Source: an uncultured Bacilli bacterium (GTDB lineage: Bacteria; Bacillota_I; Bacilli_A; RF39; UBA660). Taken from it: a stretch of 64,000 bases of DNA. Location of the stretch: the NCBI GenBank assembly GCA_934167465.1, contig CAKPKR010000001.1, positions 287,030 through 351,029 of the forward strand. Direction: 5' to 3'. Each line of letters starts with the position of its first letter. Position 1 is the first letter of the stretch. The notes below the pieces were generated by a model that saw only the letters and a program-made list of their open reading frames with translations, was not told the DNA's origin and did no database searches. Positions 1,838-44,307 of this stretch are shown here, piece after piece. The translations under genes and the position numbers were made by a program.

Positions 1838-3722
1838 TTTTATACTCCTTTTTTAAATATACCATTAAAATAGAAATATCTGCTGGATTTACTCCACTTA
1901 TTCTTAAAGCTTGACCAATTGAAGTAGGCATTACTTCTTTTAATTTTTGTCTTGCTTCGCTAGCAATATTTTTAATGTTATCATAATTAATATCTTCAGG
2001 TATTTTTTTATTTTCTAATTTCATCATTTTTTCGGCTTCTTTAATAGCTTTATTTATATACCCTTCATATTTAATGTTAATCTCTACTTCTTCTTCTATT
2101 TCTTTGTCATATTTTATATCAATTAATTTTTCTTTTCTTAAATTTTCCAATGTTATTTCTGGTCTTTTTAAAAAGTTATAAGCACTTATACCATCTTTCA
2201 AAGGAGTAGTATTTAAATTATTAAATTTTTCTAAATTATCTTTGGAAGGAGTAATCTTAATATTTTGAAGTTCTTTAGTCATTTTTTCAATATTATTTAT
2301 TTTATTTAAATATCTATTATATTGTTCTTCATTAATTAATCCTACTTCATATCCATGTTTTCTTAATCTCAAATCAGCATTATCGTGTCTTAATAATAAA
2401 CGATATTCTGCTCTTGAAGTTAATAATCTATATGGGTCTCTTATTCCTTTTGTAACTAAATCATCAATCAATACACCTATATATGCTTCATTACGGCCTA
2501 ATATTAACGGTTCTTTTTGTTCTAATTTTAAAACAGCATTTATACCGGCAATCAAACCTTGGCAAGCTGCTTCTTCATAGCCACTTGTTCCATTAATTTG
2601 TCCAGCTGTAAATAAATTTTCTATTAGTTTTGTTTCTAATGATTGTTTTAATTGTGTTGGATATATTGAATCATATTCAATTGCATATGCATATTTTAAT
2701 ATTTTTGCGTGTTCTAATCCTGGTAAACTATGAACCATTTTTTCTTGAATATCATATGGCATACTTGTTGAAAATCCTTGTAAATAAATAGTATTACCAT
2801 AAGTTGGATCATCACTTATTCTGCTTTCAGGTTCTAAAAATAATTGATGTCTTTCCTTATCGGCAAATCTTACAACTTTATCTTCAATTGATGGACAATA
2901 TCTTGGTCCGATTCCTTTAATATCGTCTAATCCACCATACATACTTGATTTATTTAAATTTTCTCTTATTATTTTATGAGTTTCTTCAGTTGTATAAGTT
3001 AAATGACAAGGAACTTGTTCTTCTATTTTATATAAAGGTTTTAAATCAAAGGAAAAAGTTAAATATTCAGGATCACCTAATTCTATTCGTGTTTTTGAAA
3101 AATCAATTGTATTTATATCTATTCTTTGAGGTGTACCTGTTTTAAGTCTTTTTATTTTAAAACCTAATTTTTCTAAATTTTCACTTAAATAATTAGATGG
3201 TTTTTCACCATGTGGACCTTGTCTTGTTCTAGTACTTCCAACTAGTATATCAGCTTTTAAATATGTTCCAGTTGTTAAAATAACTGCATCACCATATATT
3301 TTTGTATCATCTTCTAAAATAACACCAATTACTTTGTTATTTTCTACGATCAAGTTTTCAACTATACCTTCTTTTATTTCTAAATTTTCTTGTTGTTTCA
3401 TAATTTCTAACATTTTTTTAGGATATGTTATTTTATCACCTTGAGCTCTTAATGATTTAATAGCTGGACCTTTTTTATTATTAAGCATTTTTATTTGAAT
3501 ATGAGTCATATCTGCAGTTTTTCCCATTTGTCCGCCTAAAGCATCTATTTCTCTTACAACTATTCCTTTTGCTGAACCTCCTATTGAAGGATTACAAGGC
3601 ATATCGGCAATATTTTTAATATTTCCCGTTACCAATAATGTTTTATGTCCTTTACGAGAAGCTGCTAAAGAAGCTTCACATCCGGCATGTCCGCCACCAA
3701 CTACAATGATTTCATATTTCAT
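1824..3722 (-). CDS. mnmG: tRNA uridine 5-carboxymethylaminomethyl modification enzyme MnmG (GidA)
   Basis: FAD motif IIVVGGGHAGCEA and a long conserved body. The ORF track starts at GTG 3731. I prefer the ATG at 3722 (MKYEIIVVGGG) because the RBS AAAGGAAG sits 8 nt upstream. Confidence 0.95.
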   Translation of the reverse strand: MKYEIIVVGGGHAGCEASLAASRKGHKTLLVTGNIKNIADMPCNPSIGGSAKGIVVREIDALGGQMGKTADMTHIQIKMLNNKKGPAIKSLRAQGDKITYPKKMLEIMKQQENLEIKEGIVENLIVENNKVIGVILEDDTKIYGDAVILTTGTYLKADILVGSTRTRQGPHGEKPSNYLSENLEKLGFKIKRLKTGTPQRIDINTIDFSKTRIELGDPEYLTFSFDLKPLYKIEEQVPCHLTYTTEETHKIIRENLNKSSMYGGLDDIKGIGPRYCPSIEDKVVRFADKERHQLFLEPESRISDDPTYGNTIYLQGFSTSMPYDIQEKMVHSLPGLEHAKILKYAYAIEYDSIYPTQLKQSLETKLIENLFTAGQINGTSGYEEAACQGLIAGINAVLKLEQKEPLILGRNEAYIGVLIDDLVTKGIRDPYRLLTSRAEYRLLLRHDNADLRLRKHGYEVGLINEEQYNRYLNKINNIEKMTKELQNIKITPSKDNLEKFNNLNTTPLKDGISAYNFLKRPEITLENLRKEKLIDIKYDKEIEEEVEINIKYEGYINKAIKEAEKMMKLENKKIPEDINYDNIKNIASEARQKLKEVMPTSIGQALRISGVNPADISILMVYLKKEYKNESK

Positions 3723-3800
3723 ATAAAACACTTCCTTTTTAACTTTTCATATTATACTATTTTTTTTGTTTTTATACAATAATTACATATAATTAATTGA

Positions 3801-3833
3801 TAAAAAAAATAACAAGATTATTTTGTTATTTTT
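3801..3833 (-). terminator. rho-independent terminator hairpin AATAACAA-gattatt-TTGTTATT with a flanking A/T run
   Basis: Read directly downstream of the minus-strand gene ending at 3836. Confidence 0.4.
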
Positions 3834-3835
3834 AA

Positions 3836-4864
3836 TTAATTTCCTAAAAAAATAATTCTTGCAAATCCATCTCCAATGTTTGAATATTCTATTATTGATT
3901 TATTACTAACATTTGTACTATTTATTGTTTTAGTATTTTCTTCAGCAGATTCTTTACAATTATAGCAATATATTTTTTTATTTTTTAATAAGTTATTTCC
4001 AATATAACTTGAACCTCCACCAGCAGAATAAGGGGTACAACCACCTCCATAAAGTCCACCTCCACCTCCTACTCCAGCACAAGTAGCACCTTGACCAAAG
4101 GAACCAATTGAATGATAAATTGGATTTGTATTTCCTCTACTATCATAAAAATTTCCTCCAGATGTTTGTGATGCACCAATTCCATATAATGTTACTGTAC
4201 CTTCCTTATAAGAATCGCCATTTACACCTTGAATACCTCCACCATTACCACCAGAACAAGCCATAATTGCTGCATTAGATCCACCTCCGCCTCCACCTGA
4301 TGCAACAATATAAATTGATGATAATTTTTTGCTTAATGTGGAAAGTAAGCCGGATTCTGATGCTATATGAGTTGCTCCTCCACCTGATGCAGTTAGTACA
4401 TGGCCATCATTGTCAATTTTAGCATCTCCACCACCATTATATCCACCTTTAAAAGCTTTATGTTCACCATTTCCTGAACCAGAACCTCCAACATTTATAT
4501 ATAATTTACTACCTTTTTGTAAAGTAATTTCTCCTGTTGCATATGCTCCATATCCACCTGTTTTAGATGAAGTAGACGCACCGCCTTGAGCACCCCATAC
4601 ATCTAATCTGTATTTACCATTATATGGAACTATAAATATTTGTTCAGTACCTGTGTATAAAAAATCATAAACTACTGAAAATTGATTATTTTTTTTATTA
4701 TATAATTCATTTAAAGCATCATTTACGCTCATACTACTTCCGTCACTGGCATTATATACTACATCACTTGCTTTATATATTGTTGCGGCATAGACTCCTA
4801 GCCCAGTAAATATTATTCCACATATTACTATTAAAAATATTCTACTTTTTATTATTTTTTTCAT
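3836..4864 (-). CDS. secreted glycine-rich protein (Gly_rich-like domain). The N-terminal 55 aa are shared with the paralog at 5183-5734.
   Basis: N-terminal signal anchor MKKIIKSRIFLIVICGIIFTGLGVYA. Body includes VWGAQGGAS...YINVGGSGSGNG...IYIVASGGGGGGS...GGGGGLYGGGC. The ORF-track start at 4891 adds 9 aa. I prefer the ATG at 4864 because of the RBS AGGTGA, identity with the paralog start, and a consensus promoter upstream. Confidence 0.8.
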   Translation of the reverse strand: MKKIIKSRIFLIVICGIIFTGLGVYAATIYKASDVVYNASDGSSMSVNDALNELYNKKNNQFSVVYDFLYTGTEQIFIVPYNGKYRLDVWGAQGGASTSSKTGGYGAYATGEITLQKGSKLYINVGGSGSGNGEHKAFKGGYNGGGDAKIDNDGHVLTASGGGATHIASESGLLSTLSKKLSSIYIVASGGGGGGSNAAIMACSGGNGGGIQGVNGDSYKEGTVTLYGIGASQTSGGNFYDSRGNTNPIYHSIGSFGQGATCAGVGGGGGLYGGGCTPYSAGGGSSYIGNNLLKNKKIYCYNCKESAEENTKTINSTNVSNKSIIEYSNIGDGFARIIFLGN

Positions 4865-4880
4865 TTGATCACCTATTTCA

Positions 4881-4928
4881 ATTATATACATTCAAATAAA
4901 TGTATGTCAAGTACATTTGTTTGAATGT
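4881..4928 (-). promoter_or_regulatory. consensus sigma-A promoter: -35 TTGACA at 4905-4910, 18-nt spacer, -10 TATAAT at 4881-4886. The spacer is the palindrome TACATTCAAATAAATGTA. A second copy of the motif (TACATTTGTTTGAATGT) lies at 4912-4928.
   Basis: Read on the minus strand as TTGACAtacatttatttgaatgtaTATAATtgaaatAGGTGAtcaaATG. Confidence 0.6.
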
Positions 4929-4956
4929 GTGTTAATTTAATGTTAATGGTGATTTT

Positions 4957-11899: not shown

Positions 11900-13021
11900 A
11901 TGAATTTAGAAATTAAACAAAATGTATTATTAGAAAATTTAAACTATGCGATTAAGGGAATATCTACTAAGAATATTATTCCAATATTAAATTGTATTAA
12001 ATTTGAATTAAAAAAAGAAGGACTATATATGACTAGTACTGATAATGAAAGTGCTATTAAAACATTTATTCCTGAATGTGATATTGTAAGTATTAATTCA
12101 TTAGGTGAAATAGTAGTATCAGGAAGATATATATATGAAATAATTAAGAAATTACCAGGAAAAGTTATTAAAATAGAAGAAGTAATAGATAATAAAGTAC
12201 ATATATCAACAGATAATTCATCATTTGATTTAAATTGTAATAATATTAATGAATATCCAGAATTAGATTTAAATGATAGTAAAAATCCAGTTATTATTAA
12301 TAAAAAACTATTTAAAACAATGATTAAACAAACTTCTTTTGCAGCCTCAACTCAAGAAAATAGACCAGAATTTACTGGAATTAATATTATATTAGAAAAT
12401 AATAAATTAGAATGTACAGCAACTGATTCGTATCGTTTAGCAAAAAAATATATTGAATTAGATAATGTATATGAAAATAATGTTAACTTAATAATTCCAA
12501 ATAAAAATATAATGGAATTAGAAAGAATGATTGAAGATAATGAAGAACCTTTAGAAATGCACATTTTTAATAATAAAGTTATATTTAAATTTGATAATAT
12601 AATATTTATGACAAGATTAATTAATGGAAATTATCCTGATACAAATAAATTAATTCCTAATAATTTTAATATAATTCTTAAAGCTAATTTAAATGAATTA
12701 TATAGTGCAATTGATAGAGCTAGCTTACTTACTAGTGAATATGATAAAAATACAATTAAACTAGAATTAAATGAAAAAATAGTTGTTATATCTTCAAACA
12801 TTCCCGAAATAGGGTATGTTGAAGAAAAACTAAATGTTGATACTGATTATAAAGATAAATTCAAAATTTCATTTAGTTCTAAATATATGTTAGATGCTTT
12901 AAAATCATTAGAATGTGATGAAGTAAATATTAAATTTAATGGTGAAGAACAACCAATTATTGTTAATAATATAATAGATGATGGTGTTATTCAATTAGTA
13001 TTACCTGTTAAAACATATTAA
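11900..13021 (+). CDS. dnaN: DNA polymerase III beta sliding clamp
   Basis: 373 aa with the three-domain clamp architecture. Sits between dnaA and recF. Confidence 0.95.
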   Translation: MNLEIKQNVLLENLNYAIKGISTKNIIPILNCIKFELKKEGLYMTSTDNESAIKTFIPECDIVSINSLGEIVVSGRYIYEIIKKLPGKVIKIEEVIDNKVHISTDNSSFDLNCNNINEYPELDLNDSKNPVIINKKLFKTMIKQTSFAASTQENRPEFTGINIILENNKLECTATDSYRLAKKYIELDNVYENNVNLIIPNKNIMELERMIEDNEEPLEMHIFNNKVIFKFDNIIFMTRLINGNYPDTNKLIPNNFNIILKANLNELYSAIDRASLLTSEYDKNTIKLELNEKIVVISSNIPEIGYVEEKLNVDTDYKDKFKISFSSKYMLDALKSLECDEVNIKFNGEEQPIIVNNIIDDGVIQLVLPVKTY

Positions 13022-13107
13022 AAATAGAATTTTTTCTATTTTTTTTCTTTTTCTACAAATTTCAACATTAACTATATATAGAATATATAACTCAAAGGAG
13101 GGTTATT

Positions 13108-13566
13108 GTGGAAAACTATGAAATAAATAATTCAACATTAGCAGTTATTGCTTTAAATGAGAAACAATCCAAAATAATTGAATTAGATGAAATTTATATT
13201 GTGGAAAAATCTGTATTTGAAATAATTGATCATAGTTGTAAATTTTTTGGAAGTTCATATTTAGGAAGACATGAGGGAACAAAAATGATAACTGGAATAA
13301 AATATAAAACACCTATATTAATTGAAGAAAGTCATAATATTATATTTTTTCCTACATGTTCTTCTAAAATGAATAATTGTATGTGGATATCTTTAAATAA
13401 TATTAAAAATTATTCAAAATATAAAAGAATTTCTAAAATTATATTTAAAAATGATTATGAATTAATTCTTAATATTTCATATGGTTCATTAGAAAATCAA
13501 ATATTAAGATCAACTTTATTAGATAGTACACTTAGAAATCATAAAAAAAATATAATGAATAAGTAA
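13108..13566 (+). CDS. comK: ComK-family competence transcription factor homolog
   Basis: GTG start with RBS GGAGGG. Aligns by eye to B. subtilis ComK motifs: NSTLAVIAL / KIIELDEIYIV / EIIDHSCKFFGSSYLGRHEGT / KTPILIEESHNIIFFPTCSS / NCMWISLNNIK / ISYGSLENQILR. Confidence 0.65.
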   Translation: MENYEINNSTLAVIALNEKQSKIIELDEIYIVEKSVFEIIDHSCKFFGSSYLGRHEGTKMITGIKYKTPILIEESHNIIFFPTCSSKMNNCMWISLNNIKNYSKYKRISKIIFKNDYELILNISYGSLENQILRSTLLDSTLRNHKKNIMNK

Positions 13567-13686
13567 TTTACTTATTTTTTCTTTTTTTTTGCTTTATTTT
13601 ATGATATAATGTACATGTATGTGTAGGAGTATGAAAAAATATAAATTTTAAAAAATAGGCCATTTAAATAAAAAAAGAGGTGTTTT

Positions 13687-16721
<3,035 letters not shown>

Positions 16722-31478: not shown

Positions 31479-31955
31479 ATGAAAGGAATATCTAGAAAAA
31501 TAGACGAATTAGGTCGAATTGTTATACCTAAAGAAATAAGAAATAATTTAAACATTAATGTCAATGATGAGTTAGAAATATATGTAAATGATAATAAAAT
31601 CATTTTAGAAAAATATTCAAAATTAGATAATATAAATGATTTTATTAAAAATTTAATAAAAAATATTAAAGATGTAAATGAAATGAAAATATTAGTAACT
31701 GATAAAGAAAAAGTAATAGATACCAATGAATTAATTACAAAAGATTTAAAAAATATTATAGAAAATAATGTAAATAAAAAAAATATAAATCTTAATATAA
31801 CTGATAAATTAGAAACCAATTGTTCAATAAATATAATTAAAGAAAATTATTTACCAATCGGTTCAGTTGTTATTTTAGGCAATAATCTTAATGAATTAGA
31901 TTGTAAGTTAGGTAATTTTATTGCACAAATATTAAGTAATTATATTGCTTTATAA
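31479..31955 (+). CDS. spoVT: AbrB/SpoVT-family transcriptional regulator (SpoVT-like, 158 aa)
   Basis: N-terminal swapped-hairpin domain IDELGRIVIPKEIR..L.I...DELEIYV..NKIILEKYS with a ~100-aa C-terminal extension. Located downstream of mfd as in Bacillus. Confidence 0.6.
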   Translation: MKGISRKIDELGRIVIPKEIRNNLNINVNDELEIYVNDNKIILEKYSKLDNINDFIKNLIKNIKDVNEMKILVTDKEKVIDTNELITKDLKNIIENNVNKKNINLNITDKLETNCSINIIKENYLPIGSVVILGNNLNELDCKLGNFIAQILSNYIAL

Positions 31956-31974
31956 AAATTTATATGTTATAATT

Positions 31975-32197
31975 TTACATATTGAAAAGTTATGAAGGAA
32001 AGAGAAATAATTGAATTTTTAAAGAGAACTAGTGGTTGGTGTAAACTAGTAAAATTTATTATTTTAAATGGTTCTGGAATTGTTTAAGTGAATAATTAGC
32101 TTATACCGTAAATATGCGTTAAATATAAGAGGTAGATTTATCTATGAATTAAGGTGGTACCACGTGAACTACGTCCTTATTAGGATGTAGTTTTTTT
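31975..32197 (+). promoter_or_regulatory. T-box riboswitch leader (probably Met-specific) with terminator
   Basis: T-box motif AATTAAGGTGGTACCACG at 32147-32164 (consensus AATTAGGGTGGTACCGCG). Terminator CTACGTCCT-tatt-AGGATGTAG followed by T7 at 32169-32197. Stem I candidate at ~31990-32060 with AUGA at 31991-31994. Confidence 0.6.
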
Positions 32198-32211: not shown

Positions 32212-32694
32212 ATGCGAAAATTTGAAAAAATAAGTTTTGAACAATTTAAACTTGATGTAAAAGATGATGTAAATTTATATGATTCATATAATATTCCCAA
32301 AAGAAGTACTAAAAATAGTGCTGGATATGACTTTGAATCTTTATATGATTTTACACTTAAACCAAATGAAATTATTAAAATACCAACAGGTATTAAAGTT
32401 ACAATGAATTCAGATGAAGTTTTATTTATAATAGTTAGAAGTAGTATGGGTTTTAAATATAATGTTAGGCTTGTAAATCAAGTAGGAGTAATTAACAGTG
32501 ATTATTACAATAATTCTGATAATGAAGGACATATATTTATTAAATTACATAATCAAGGTAATAAAGATTATATTGTAAAAAAAGGTGAAAAAATATGTCA
32601 AGGAATATTTACAAAGTATTTGACGGTAGATAATGAAGAAAAAATAGAAAAAGAAAGAATTAGTGGATTTGGTTCTACTAGTAAGGAGGATTAA
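32212..32694 (+). CDS. dut: dUTP diphosphatase (homotrimeric dUTPase)
   Basis: All five motifs are present: SAGYDF, VRSSMG, GVINSDYYN, KICQGIF and RISGFGSTSK. Confidence 0.8.
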   Translation: MRKFEKISFEQFKLDVKDDVNLYDSYNIPKRSTKNSAGYDFESLYDFTLKPNEIIKIPTGIKVTMNSDEVLFIIVRSSMGFKYNVRLVNQVGVINSDYYNNSDNEGHIFIKLHNQGNKDYIVKKGEKICQGIFTKYLTVDNEEKIEKERISGFGSTSKED

Positions 32695-32695
32695 T

Positions 32696-34249
32696 ATGAA
32701 AGAAAAATTTTACATTTCAACAGCAATTGCTTATGCATCAAGTAAACCACATATTGGAAATACTTATGAAATAGTTTTAGCCGATGCTATAGCTCGTTAC
32801 AAAAGATTAACAGGTTATGATGTTTATTTCCAAACAGGTACTGATGAACACGGTCAAAAGATTGAACAAAAGGCTCTTGAACAAGGAAAACAACCTCAAG
32901 AATATGTTGATGAAATAGCTTTGGAAGTTAGAAAAATATGGGATGTTATGAATACAAGTTATGACAAATTTGTTAGAACTTCAAATCCAAATCATAAAGA
33001 AGTAGTTTCTAGAATATTTAAAAAATTATATGACCAAGGGGATATTTATAAAGGTAACTATGAAGGTTTATATTGCACACCTTGTGAATCATTTTGGACG
33101 GAATCTCAATTAGTAGATGGAAAATGTCCAGATTGTGGTAGAGAAGTTAAAGTAGCTAGTGAAGAAGCATATTTCTTTAAATTAAGTAACTACACTAAGA
33201 GATTAGAAGAATATATTGAATCACATCCTGATTTTATTCAACCTGAAAGTAGAAAAAATGAAATTATGAATAACTTTATAAAACCAGGGTTACAAGACCT
33301 TTGTGTATCTCGTACATCATTTGATTGGGGCGTTCCTGTTACATTTGATGATAAGCATATAATTTATGTTTGGATAGACGCTTTATCAAATTATATTACT
33401 TTCTTAGGATATGATGTTGATAATAGTTCAGATGAATTTAAAAAATATTGGCCTGCTGATATCCATTTGATAGGTAAAGATATTTTAAGATTTCACACCA
33501 TATATTGGCCAATTATGTTAATGGCTTTAGATTTACCAATGCCTAAAAAAATATTTGGTCATCCTTGGGTATTATTTGGTAATGATAAAATGAGTAAATC
33601 AAAGGGAAATATATTATATGCTGATGATTTAGTTAAAGAATTTGGTGTTGATGCTATTAGATATTATTTATTACATGAAATACCTTTTGCTAGTGATGGA
33701 ACTATTACTTATGAATTATTAATTGAAAGAATTAATTCTGATTTAGCAAATATTCTTGGTAATTTAGTCAATAGAACAATTTCAATGGCTCATAAATATT
33801 TTGATGGAATAGTTTATTTGCCTACTGAATTTGAAGATATTGATCAAGAATTAATTGATTTAGTTTTAAAAACACCAAGTATTGTTGAAGAAAAAATGAA
33901 TGATTTAAAGGTAGCAGAAGCAATTGATGCAATCTTTGATATATTTAGAAGATGTAATAAATATATTGATGAAACTATGCCTTGGGTTTTAGCAAAAGAT
34001 GAAACAAAACAAGAAAGATTAAAAACTGTACTATATAATTTATTAGAATCAATAAGAAGTGGAGCTACATTATTATATCCATTTTTGCCTGAAACATCAG
34101 ATAAAATTTTTAGTCAATTAAATACTAACAATAGGTCAGTTGAAAGCATTAATTTTAAGGGAATGGATGAAGGTATTAAATTAAATAATCCAGAACCTTT
34201 ATTTGCTAGAATTGACAAAGAAAAAAAATTATCTGAATTAAATGTGTAA
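32696..34249 (+). CDS. metG: methionine--tRNA ligase (lacks the C-terminal tRNA-binding domain)
   Basis: HIGN and KMSKS motifs, plus the zinc knuckle CTPCESF...CPDCGRE. The perfect RBS AAGGAGG 7 nt upstream of the ATG at 32696 is preferred over the ORF-track start at 32663, which overlaps dut. Confidence 0.93.
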   Translation: MKEKFYISTAIAYASSKPHIGNTYEIVLADAIARYKRLTGYDVYFQTGTDEHGQKIEQKALEQGKQPQEYVDEIALEVRKIWDVMNTSYDKFVRTSNPNHKEVVSRIFKKLYDQGDIYKGNYEGLYCTPCESFWTESQLVDGKCPDCGREVKVASEEAYFFKLSNYTKRLEEYIESHPDFIQPESRKNEIMNNFIKPGLQDLCVSRTSFDWGVPVTFDDKHIIYVWIDALSNYITFLGYDVDNSSDEFKKYWPADIHLIGKDILRFHTIYWPIMLMALDLPMPKKIFGHPWVLFGNDKMSKSKGNILYADDLVKEFGVDAIRYYLLHEIPFASDGTITYELLIERINSDLANILGNLVNRTISMAHKYFDGIVYLPTEFEDIDQELIDLVLKTPSIVEEKMNDLKVAEAIDAIFDIFRRCNKYIDETMPWVLAKDETKQERLKTVLYNLLESIRSGATLLYPFLPETSDKIFSQLNTNNRSVESINFKGMDEGIKLNNPEPLFARIDKEKKLSELNV

Positions 34250-43740: not shown

Positions 43741-43791
43741 TTGTATAAAAATAAATTAAATCATCACTATTTAATAGGAGATGATTTTTTT

Positions 43792-44307
43792 ATGAAAAAA
43801 ATATTATGTTTATTAATAATCATATTTGTAATTGTTACGAGTGTTAAAGCAAGTAATTTTGTTATTCCTGATGATGCTATTAGAATAAGAGTAATTGCTA
43901 ACAGCAATAGTGAATATGATCAAAATATTAAATTAAAAATAAAAGAAATGTTAGAAATAAAAATGTATAATTTATTAAAAGATATAAAAGGTGTAGAAAG
44001 TGCTAGAACTATCATCAATAATAATCTGAATAGTATTGAAAATGATATTAAGAATATTTTAGAAAATGAAAATTATACTTTAGGATATAATATTAGCTTT
44101 GGGGACAATTATTTTCCTAAAAAGGAATATAAGGGTGTAACGTATGAAGAAGGTTATTATGAATCATTAGTAGTTACACTAGGAAGTGGTGAAGGCGATA
44201 ATTGGTGGTGTGTTTTATTTCCACCACTATGTTTATTAGAGGCTGAAGAAAGTGAAGAAGTTGAATATAAATTTTTTATTCAAGAATTATTTGATAAGTA
44301 TTTTTAA
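43792..44307 (+). CDS. spoIIR: stage II sporulation protein R (SpoIIR family)
   Basis: Signal peptide, then IRIRVIANSNSEYDQNIKLKIKE and the hallmark GSGEGDNWWCVLFPPLC. Start at the ATG at 43792 (RBS AGGAG). Confidence 0.7.
   Translation: MKKILCLLIIIFVIVTSVKASNFVIPDDAIRIRVIANSNSEYDQNIKLKIKEMLEIKMYNLLKDIKGVESARTIINNNLNSIENDIKNILENENYTLGYNISFGDNYFPKKEYKGVTYEEGYYESLVVTLGSGEGDNWWCVLFPPLCLLEAEESEEVEYKFFIQELFDKYF

Follow-up and report, generated by a model that had tools for sequence, protein, structure and literature searches.

In a 64,000-nucleotide stretch of the genome of an uncultured Bacilli bacterium (GenBank assembly GCA_934167465.1, contig CAKPKR010000001.1; hereafter the window), the gene between dnaN and recF encodes a ComK-family protein of 152 amino acids (aa) that lacks the C-terminal tail of Bacillus subtilis ComK. 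The combined evidence makes it probable that this is a resident, tail-less ComK whose promoter is set by phosphorylated Spo0A (Spo0A~P), whose dosage follows the nearby replication origin (oriC) and whose targets form a K-state-like regulon. The comparative-genomics case is well supported, and the regulon is the weakest step of this combined reading. The most informative feature of the locus, overlooked by an earlier note on this DNA, is a series of phased Spo0A-type boxes in the comK promoter.

As a bistable switch ComK has entered the textbooks, on knowledge from a few Bacillus, Staphylococcus and Listeria species. The family is already known, and annotation pipelines name the proteins considered here 'ComK'. 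In the literature, no description was found of a short, tail-less ComK subfamily fixed in the dnaN-recF slot with a Spo0A-box promoter, and nothing relevant on ComK together with dnaN/recF, RF39/RFN20 or Erysipelotrichales/Mollicutes. The locus is a starting point, available to cloning, for studying gene exchange or growth arrest in the uncultured Bacilli that abound in gut and rumen.

Family membership and position at the origin

The earlier note had assigned the open reading frame (ORF) to the ComK family on the basis of four peptide blocks. All four are found in the translation, and the assignment is borne out by a profile search in which PF06338 (ComK) matches the protein with E=3.4e-43 and 147.5 bits (cut-off 22.3 bits), aligning protein residues 1-144 with profile positions 1-149 of 152, which is nearly the whole profile. 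No other Pfam family matches at E<=1, LytTR (PF04397) included, the NCBIfam models give no match, and a sequence search of the PDB returns a chance match only, with no sequence-related solved structure. PF06338 is present in all close homologues. Across the conserved core the window protein belongs to the same family as B. subtilis ComK (192 aa, PF06338), with 39% identity over B. subtilis residues 9-157, and differs from it in lacking the first 8 residues and residues 158-192. The alignment stops at residue 157 of 192, in agreement with the earlier statement that the C-terminal tail is missing. The B. subtilis sequence used for the alignment shares 85% and 56% identity with the database clusters P0349 and P0316, and its end (Y192) matches the published description (bioRxiv 10.64898/2026.03.17.710445). 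Identity of the window protein to the ComKs of Listeria, Staphylococcus and Bacillus is 36-40%. The blocks SC.(F/Y)(F/Y)GSS..GR, K.PI, FFPT.S and C.WI are common to it and the ComKs that have been studied, and the alignment of ComK homologues contains both invariant and near-invariant core columns.

The gene lies 1.4 kb from dnaA in the local order rpmH-rnpA-yidC (- strand) followed by dnaA-dnaN-comK-recF-gyrB-gyrA (+ strand), in a window of about 24% GC in which the sign of the GC skew switches near 10 kb. Beyond these genes, the window keeps the usual Bacillus-type origin-proximal order, with tadA, the signal recognition particle (SRP) RNA, dnaX, recR, holB, yaaT, rsmI, pth, mfd, metS, tatD, ksgA, whiA, rplI and dnaB/dnaC. 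In Bacillus the dnaN-recF slot holds yaaA/rlbA, which encodes an S4-like protein of about 70 aa. As the earlier note had proposed, ComK occupies this slot instead: it is the only ORF between dnaN and recF and has no S4 match, so no S4-like protein is encoded there, and the flanking spacers of 86 bp (13022-13107) and 120 bp leave no room for a yaaA/rlbA-type gene. Because recF overlaps gyrB, there is no gene of the remB type between those two either, a slot held by remB/yaaB in Bacillus.

The generality of this arrangement was evaluated with 98 loci that were retrieved by ComK similarity alone, gene order being no selection criterion. Most (80) come from a metagenome scan with a 12-sequence alignment, a 50-sequence alignment being too diverse for the scan; seven are from species-representative genomes, all uncultured metagenome-assembled genomes (five "Bacilli" and two "Muribaculaceae" from human, rabbit and chicken), and six are from look-ups of single homologues. 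The remaining five, with ComK 29-40% identical to the window protein, represent tree branches missed by the scan and were added since a single scan pattern biases retrieval. The whole set covers rumen and the gut of human, rabbit and chicken as well as other metagenomes; within it, ComK is 29 to 99% identical to the window protein, GC content ranges from 19 to 36%, and DnaA identity falls as low as 41%.

Where the neighbours could be tested, dnaN is adjacent upstream in 83 of 86 loci and recF is adjacent downstream in 80 of 82. The exceptions are L036, with one additional gene between dnaN and comK; L038 and L090, which are partial or otherwise unresolved contigs; and L061, in which the short ComK (4501-4950) lies downstream of a 616-aa M23-peptidase protein (198-2048) and a 719-aa VirD4/TraG-like protein (2088-4247). 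This last copy is the sole short ComK found away from oriC, and its neighbours suggest that it is carried by a conjugative element. Loci with a ComK closer to that of the window also tend to have a closer DnaA (rho 0.77), DnaN (0.69) and RecF (0.57), as expected for vertical inheritance in place. The placement between dnaN and recF is an ancient, fixed arrangement of the short ComK lineage. The earlier note, which had recommended checking the interval in related taxa, was therefore right about the location, while its description of the location as 'unusual' does not apply to the short subfamily, for which it is the rule. In B. subtilis itself, comK lies in mid-chromosome.

All 90 loci that span the complete gene have it intact, with a product of 147-158 aa, and the gene's ratio of nonsynonymous to synonymous substitutions (dN/dS) of 0.04-0.25 is similar to that of the housekeeping neighbours. 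A pseudogene or relic was rejected on these grounds. Recent insertion or mobile cargo in this genome was rejected in view of the conserved synteny and co-divergence, the copy in L061 being the one mobile example. Two local departures were observed. In L029 and L035 the comK genes are nearly identical (dS 0.011), with a dS of 0.58 for dnaN and 2.3 for dnaA, a pattern that may reflect a breakpoint of recombination or transfer between the dnaN and comK genes, or else a chimeric contig. In L092 and L093, identity of ComK to the window protein is no more than 40%, and DnaA (61%), DnaN (55-58%) and GyrB (80%) are closer to the window than in many loci with a more similar ComK, suggesting that ComK has evolved faster locally or has been replaced.

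Spo0A-type boxes in the comK promoter

Among the 7-mers of 64 non-identical dnaN-comK spacers, the strongest enrichment belongs to TTCGACA, which occurs in 35 of them against 0.1 expected and is the exact reverse complement of TGTCGAA, the 7-bp core of the Spo0A binding site, or 0A box (PMC3485338, PMC2731898). Exact copies number 52 in 8.3 kb of this spacer (6.24/kb) against about 22 in the other ~413 kb of the same loci (~0.05/kb), their orientation is biased 52:1 with a single copy reversed, and exact core copies are present in 39 of the 64 spacers. Neighbouring exact copies are spaced by 10 bp (8 times) or 20 bp (11 times) and by no other distance, and relaxed boxes lie 10 bp apart 42 times. 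In 25 loci a spacer of exactly 11 nt separates the last box from a hexamer that matches TATAAT at 5 or more of 6 positions. The design of the lineage consists of one to three head-to-tail TTCGACA boxes with a 10-bp period, placed 11, 21 and 31 nt upstream of the -10 element, and the promoters of L056, L077, L085 and L094 carry three perfect copies separated by 3-bp spacers. Only one box was found in 26 kb of rpmH-dnaA spacer and one in 9 kb of dnaA-dnaN spacer. Since the boxes are phased to the comK -10 element and nearly absent from the true origin spacers, they are attributed to the comK promoter, and the alternative that they form part of oriC was rejected. Box arrays are present in the five most divergent loci, which makes them as old as the position of the gene.

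In the window, two 6/7 boxes occupy the position homologous to the phased arrays of the related loci and are the only tandem pair with up to two mismatches in the 64 kb. The proximal box, TTCAACA, is the reverse complement of TGTtGAA, two copies of which, with 3 bp between them, make up a Spo0A site footprinted in phage Nf (PMC2731898). The window promoter thus reads as a weaker version of the design of its lineage.

Precedents for such an arrangement exist at two kinds of promoter. The comK promoter of B. subtilis, PcomK, is bound by Spo0A~P at three activating and two repressing sites, of which the repressing site R1 overlaps the -35 element (PMC3297582), and 0A boxes that overlap the core promoter repress the A2c promoters of phages phi29 and Nf (PMC2731898). 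PcomK is hence a direct Spo0A~P target, as is predicted here from the boxes; it differs in having five scattered, imperfect sites, whereas the boxes of the short-comK lineage are of consensus quality, in tandem and placed over the core promoter. A2c and R1, both repressed by Spo0A, resemble the present design in carrying head-to-tail TGTCGAA-type pairs with 3-bp spacers over the core promoter (PMC2731898, PMC3297582). The lineage studied here, for which Spo0A binding is predicted, has up to three consensus boxes, and those of the window match at 6 of 7 positions.

In the proposed mechanism, Spo0A~P would bind the phased boxes and the sporulation phosphorelay would set comK transcription directly. 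Repression of comK at the entry into sporulation is slightly favoured over class-II-type activation, because the boxes overlap the core promoter. On the side of repression, the space between the -35 and -10 positions is taken by the proximal box, and an extended -10 that suffices by itself is present in many orthologous promoters. On the side of activation, the window promoter has neither a -35 element (CAAATT, at 17-nt spacing, is no match) nor a TG extension, as is typical of activator-dependent promoters.

It is quite unlikely that the TTCGACA repeats are instead ComK's own binding sites, those of another response regulator, or reiterated -35-like elements. The idea draws on the LytTR-like fold of the ComK core (see below) and the binding of direct repeats by LytTR-type regulators, on the 10-11 bp direct repeats typical of many response regulators, on the resemblance of TCGACA to TTGACA, and on the relaxed variants TTGACA, TCTACA and TGACA that replace the CG core in some lineages. 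Against this, the 7-mer is the exact 0A core and has the 3-bp spacing of a footprinted Spo0A site; the non-consensus C of TCGACA is conserved although a plain -35 element does not require it; and none of the distances of 11, 21 and 31 nt from the -10 element would be a working -35 distance. The lineage moreover contains sporeformers, and the boxes are not repeated upstream of the neighbouring genes.

The dnaN-comK spacer is also rich in DnaA boxes, with 4.6/kb compared with 0.5-0.9/kb in the flanking genes, an enrichment of about 5-fold. In one sub-clade (L041, L043, L045, L049-L051, L057, L058, L060 and relatives) the stem of the dnaN terminator is an inverted DnaA-box pair, GTGGATA...TTATCCAC, followed by a third box, TGTGGAAAA; in these lineages comK may receive input from DnaA, or the origin may reach beyond dnaN. 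Within comK itself, DnaA boxes were rejected as an enriched feature, the density in 79 orthologues being 0.7/kb against 0.91/kb in dnaN. DnaA-box-like 9-mers with one mismatch occur on the - strand of the window at 13107-13115, 13200-13208, 13382-13390 and 13911-13919, and one such 9-mer, TGTGGAAAA, spans the comK GTG start, an unusual start codon shared with the closest relatives L001, L003 and L014. Most of the 9-mers in comK are probably coding by-products.

These boxes, together with the near-absolute linkage to dnaN and recF over deep divergence, the occupation of the Bacillus yaaA/rlbA slot, the sub-clade terminator stem and the reported action of Spo0A on replication (PMC2731898), might indicate that the short ComK acts on the chromosome origin or the replication cycle, for instance as a Spo0A-controlled brake or nucleoid factor, with no role in DNA uptake. 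We consider such an origin function highly improbable: the 0A boxes keep phase with the comK -10 element and are all but missing from the true oriC spacers, and L061 carries a copy away from oriC on a putative conjugative element. Firmicutes in general keep a frozen gene order around oriC, linkage alone is therefore no proof of function, and we know of no ComK-family member that acts in replication. A related and rather improbable proposal is that the short ComK is the non-competence output of a compact Spo0A-to-oriC module, which would couple the phosphorelay and replication status, sensed as copy number and in some lineages through DnaA boxes, to a decision on growth, replication or recombination. 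If this were true, the Bacillus-type ComK, with its tail, proteolytic control and new position, would represent one side of an old split into two subfamilies.

The missing tail and the predicted output

An exhaustive HMMER search yielded 1,073 ComK-family clusters at 50% identity, and among the best 150 of these, which were examined, the majority are 141-157 aa long. In a neighbour-joining tree the forms of 178-216 aa cluster with the Bacillus-type ComK, and the short forms make up a larger and more diverse clade that includes every origin-linked protein. The window protein accordingly groups by sequence with a large short subfamily (141-158 aa), apart from the long Bacillus-type clade. The earlier note had called it the shortest form of ComK; it is tail-less, as stated, and it is not the shortest, since homologues of 141-147 aa exist. 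Most of the ComK diversity recovered in the best 150 of the 1,073 clusters is therefore the naturally tail-less short form, which makes it possible to test in nature whether ComK function depends on the tail or whether the tail is an addition of one lineage.

The AlphaFold model of the window protein (predicted local distance difference test, pLDDT, 96.1; predicted template modelling score, pTM, 0.89) is a single compact alpha/beta domain with a terminal helix at residues 125-150 and no segment below pLDDT 50. The modelled core adopts the LytTR beta-fold and resembles the LytTR domains of AgrA, ComE and B. cereus 3d6w at 9-12% identity in structural alignments. It differs from them in its extra helices, including the long C-terminal one, in the lack of a receiver domain and in having no sequence-level match. 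The short ComK is a functional, compact, LytTR-like DNA-binding domain, inherited vertically in the dnaN-recF slot of uncultured low-GC gut and rumen 'Bacilli'.

Experiments on truncated ComKs bear directly on a protein of this shape. Residues 158-192 of B. subtilis ComK are an intrinsically disordered region; without them, within-box dimer binding is kept and inter-box coupling is lost, with a Hill coefficient falling from 4.0 to ~2.3 by cryo-electron microscopy, and the complex is distorted (bioRxiv 10.64898/2026.03.17.710445). As relayed from Susanna 2006 in PMC3128618, B. subtilis ComK minus 25 C-terminal residues keeps DNA binding and loses comG activation, and B. cereus ComK2, in which 22 C-terminal residues are missing, reduces comG expression (PMC3128618). 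Because the window protein ends where the B. subtilis tail starts, it corresponds to the experimental tail-less variant, and with 35 residues missing neither Bacillus-style cooperative activation nor tail-dependent proteolytic control is to be assumed. The region needed for recognition by MecA/ClpCP/ComS is likewise missing, the alignment ending at B. subtilis residue 157. The MecA-targeting motif FMLYPK lies in this C-terminal region of B. subtilis ComK. The title of 'competence master regulator' given by the earlier note consequently goes too far, as it presupposes the Bacillus-type action for which the tail is needed in B. subtilis. The tail is a mark of that mechanism and not of the Pfam family.

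ComK2 and the engineered 25- and 35-residue truncations of B. subtilis ComK are likewise ComKs without the C-terminal region. They raise the alternative of a ComK2-like repressor or modulator that binds DNA without activating, occupies A/T-rich sites and damps transcription. Its supporting evidence is the lowered comG expression under ComK2, the binding without activation of the 25-residue truncation, so far as PMC3128618 relays it, and the within-box dimers still formed by tail-less ComK (bioRxiv 10.64898/2026.03.17.710445). We nevertheless judge it unlikely. ComK2 lacks 22 residues only and is a paralogue alongside a full-length ComK1, whereas the short form is the sole ComK seen in the window and belongs to an old, diverse and separately evolving clade; its members are under purifying selection and are not recent truncations, and another contact with RNA polymerase may have evolved, such as one made by the basic end of the last helix.

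Returning to the combined reading, the short ComK would by homology bind A/T-rich boxes as dimers and control K-state-like genes, whether for DNA uptake, for recombination or for growth arrest. Lacking the tail, it would have neither the inter-box cooperativity of the Bacillus type nor MecA/ClpCP/ComS control. From its position at oriC, comK gains a copy number that is the highest and the most sensitive to replication. In pneumococcus, comCDE and comAB lie by the origin, and replication stress raises their copy number and trips competence (PMC5034851). These are likewise origin-adjacent early competence regulators, and an effect of dosage on comK may be proposed by analogy. The pneumococcal regulator is from a different family, ComE being a LytTR response regulator, and no peptide quorum-sensing genes were seen in the window. 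If the analogy holds, control of competence through origin-proximal gene dosage could have a second, independent example here besides that of Streptococcus. Should the regulon not include DNA uptake, the annotation 'competence protein ComK' would be misleading on short-form genomes.

Several observations weigh against this reading. Removal of the tail abolishes activation in B. subtilis, so that a tail-less protein may be no activator. The 64-kb window contains no comG, comE, comF or other late competence genes (dprA, ssbB), and ComK family membership is the single link to DNA uptake. The K-box pattern AAAA-N5-TTTT, which the earlier note had suggested as a check, has no discriminating power at 24% GC, occurring at 4.5/kb in dnaN-comK and recF spacers alike, and unlike B. 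subtilis comK the window comK promoter contains none; the equal counts and this absence give no sign of autoregulation. For the boxes, 25 of the 64 spacers lack an exact TCGACA, and the spacers are phylogenetically related, so their counts are not independent events. A tandem pair such as that of the window arises by chance in 22% of shuffles and is not significant alone, and the window boxes are altered at C/G positions contacted by Spo0A, and a single change there lowers affinity about 10-fold (PMC3485338); the Spo0A-box case therefore rests on the comparative data. Finally, spo0A was not seen within the window.

Some of these points also tell against the scheme implied by the earlier note, a Bacillus-style master activator with K-box autoactivation and a bistable comG/comE/comF switch in a naturally transformable organism. 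This is possible, though doubtful. Full-length PF06338 membership, the 36-40% identity to the Listeria, Staphylococcus and Bacillus proteins and the direct Spo0A input at B. subtilis PcomK (PMC3297582) all agree with it. The 35-aa tail for cooperativity and activation is missing, together with the region that contains the MecA-targeting motif; K-boxes are lacking from the window promoter and not enriched relative to the recF spacer; and the window holds no late competence genes. A literature search on competence genes in these uncultured lineages found no paper that addresses them.

Transcription unit and other features of the window

The features of the locus are collected in the table. Terminator-like hairpins flank comK on both sides and recF has a promoter of its own, from which comK is read as monocistronic, a separate transcription unit that is served by its own promoter and lies between the terminator following dnaN and another at its end. 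In other lineages a hairpin and T-run are kept after dnaN with a different sequence. The extended -10 motif TGnTATAAT is invariant in 8 aligned, divergent comK-recF spacers and enriched across 65 spacers. A scan with a promoter consensus was rejected as uninformative in DNA of 20% GC, giving 36 promoter-like sites against 39.9 expected. The corresponding terminator scan returned none, since it required 3 G-C pairs and the stem of the dnaN hairpin has no G-C pairs; RNA folding confirmed both hairpins. Strong Shine-Dalgarno sequences (AAGGAGG, AAGGGGG) are enriched in the orthologous dnaN-comK spacers at the position of the window sequence.

Table. Coordinates of comK, its neighbours and its putative regulatory elements in the window
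Feature	Position	Strand	Remarks
dnaN (DNA polymerase III beta clamp)	11900-13021	+	373-aa ORF; conserved upstream neighbour
Terminator-like hairpin after dnaN	13020-13043	+	-7.0 kcal/mol, z=-4.07, 0/200 shuffles as good; U-run to ~13046
Distal Spo0A-type box TTCTACA	13051-13057	+	6/7 to TTCGACA; hexamer ends 21 nt before -10
Proximal Spo0A-type box TTCAACA	13061-13067	+	6/7; 3-bp spacer; ends 11 nt before -10
Probable comK -10 element TAGAAT	13079-13084	+	Sequence reading and fixed 11-nt box spacing across loci
Shine-Dalgarno AAAGGAGGG	13094-13102	+	5-6 nt before comK GTG; sequence reading
comK, short form	13108-13566	+	152 aa, GTG start; predicted LytTR-like alpha/beta core and C-terminal helix, no disordered tail
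Terminator-like hairpin over comK stop codon	13557-13577	+	-5.2 kcal/mol, z=-3.37, 1/200 shuffles as good; long U-run
Extended -10 TGATATAAT, putative separate recF-gyrB promoter	13602-13610	+	Comparative alignment
recF	13687-14805	+	Conserved downstream neighbour; 4-nt overlap with gyrB, start 14802

Both leaders show further conserved elements. The recF leader carries a conserved GTAGGTAYAGGWGTA after the extended -10, present in the window as TGTGTAGGAGTA (13620-13631), and in closer relatives also AAAATAGGCCATTT (13652-13665). In L004-L007 it forms an attenuator-like hairpin and T-run, and RNAalifold run on rough slices of the recF leader gave no consensus structure. A small hairpin stands directly upstream of the comK Shine-Dalgarno sequence in L008, L010, L012, L019, L043-L060 and others; its shape is conserved and its sequence varied (CATTCAC..GTGAAG, ATTAGC..GCTAAT, GATATTTTT..AAAAATATC). 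No such hairpin is found in the 5' untranslated region of the window comK.

The earlier note's view of the organism as a sporeformer is reasonable, as the window carries SpoIIR, SpoIID, CotJB and CotJC. The full sporulation-related set in the 64 kb also includes an M23 peptidase that may be SpoIIQ-like and a SpoVT/AbrB-like protein, and stands alongside a staphylococcal-nuclease homologue; the coordinates of this sporulation-related and nuclease set are 43741-44307, 53348-54235, 54281-54907, 62338-63359 (-), 31479-31955 and 58554-59207 (-). The uncultured orders RF39, RFN20 and ML615J-28 match the profile of the source, a very low-GC member of the 'Bacilli' as GTDB defines them, and contain predicted sporeformers, and predicted sporeformers with spo0A are reported from related uncultured orders (PMC10868615).

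Two other genes of the window were noted. Near the origin, 3836-4891 (-) encodes a 351-aa protein with the ALK/LTK glycine-rich domain PF12810 (E=3.8e-34). This domain is best known from animal receptor kinases. A T-box leader at 31983-32181 (107.9 bits) precedes a dUTPase-family ORF (32212-32694) that overlaps the start of the methionyl-tRNA synthetase gene (32663-34249) and is an unusual first gene for a T-box-controlled unit.

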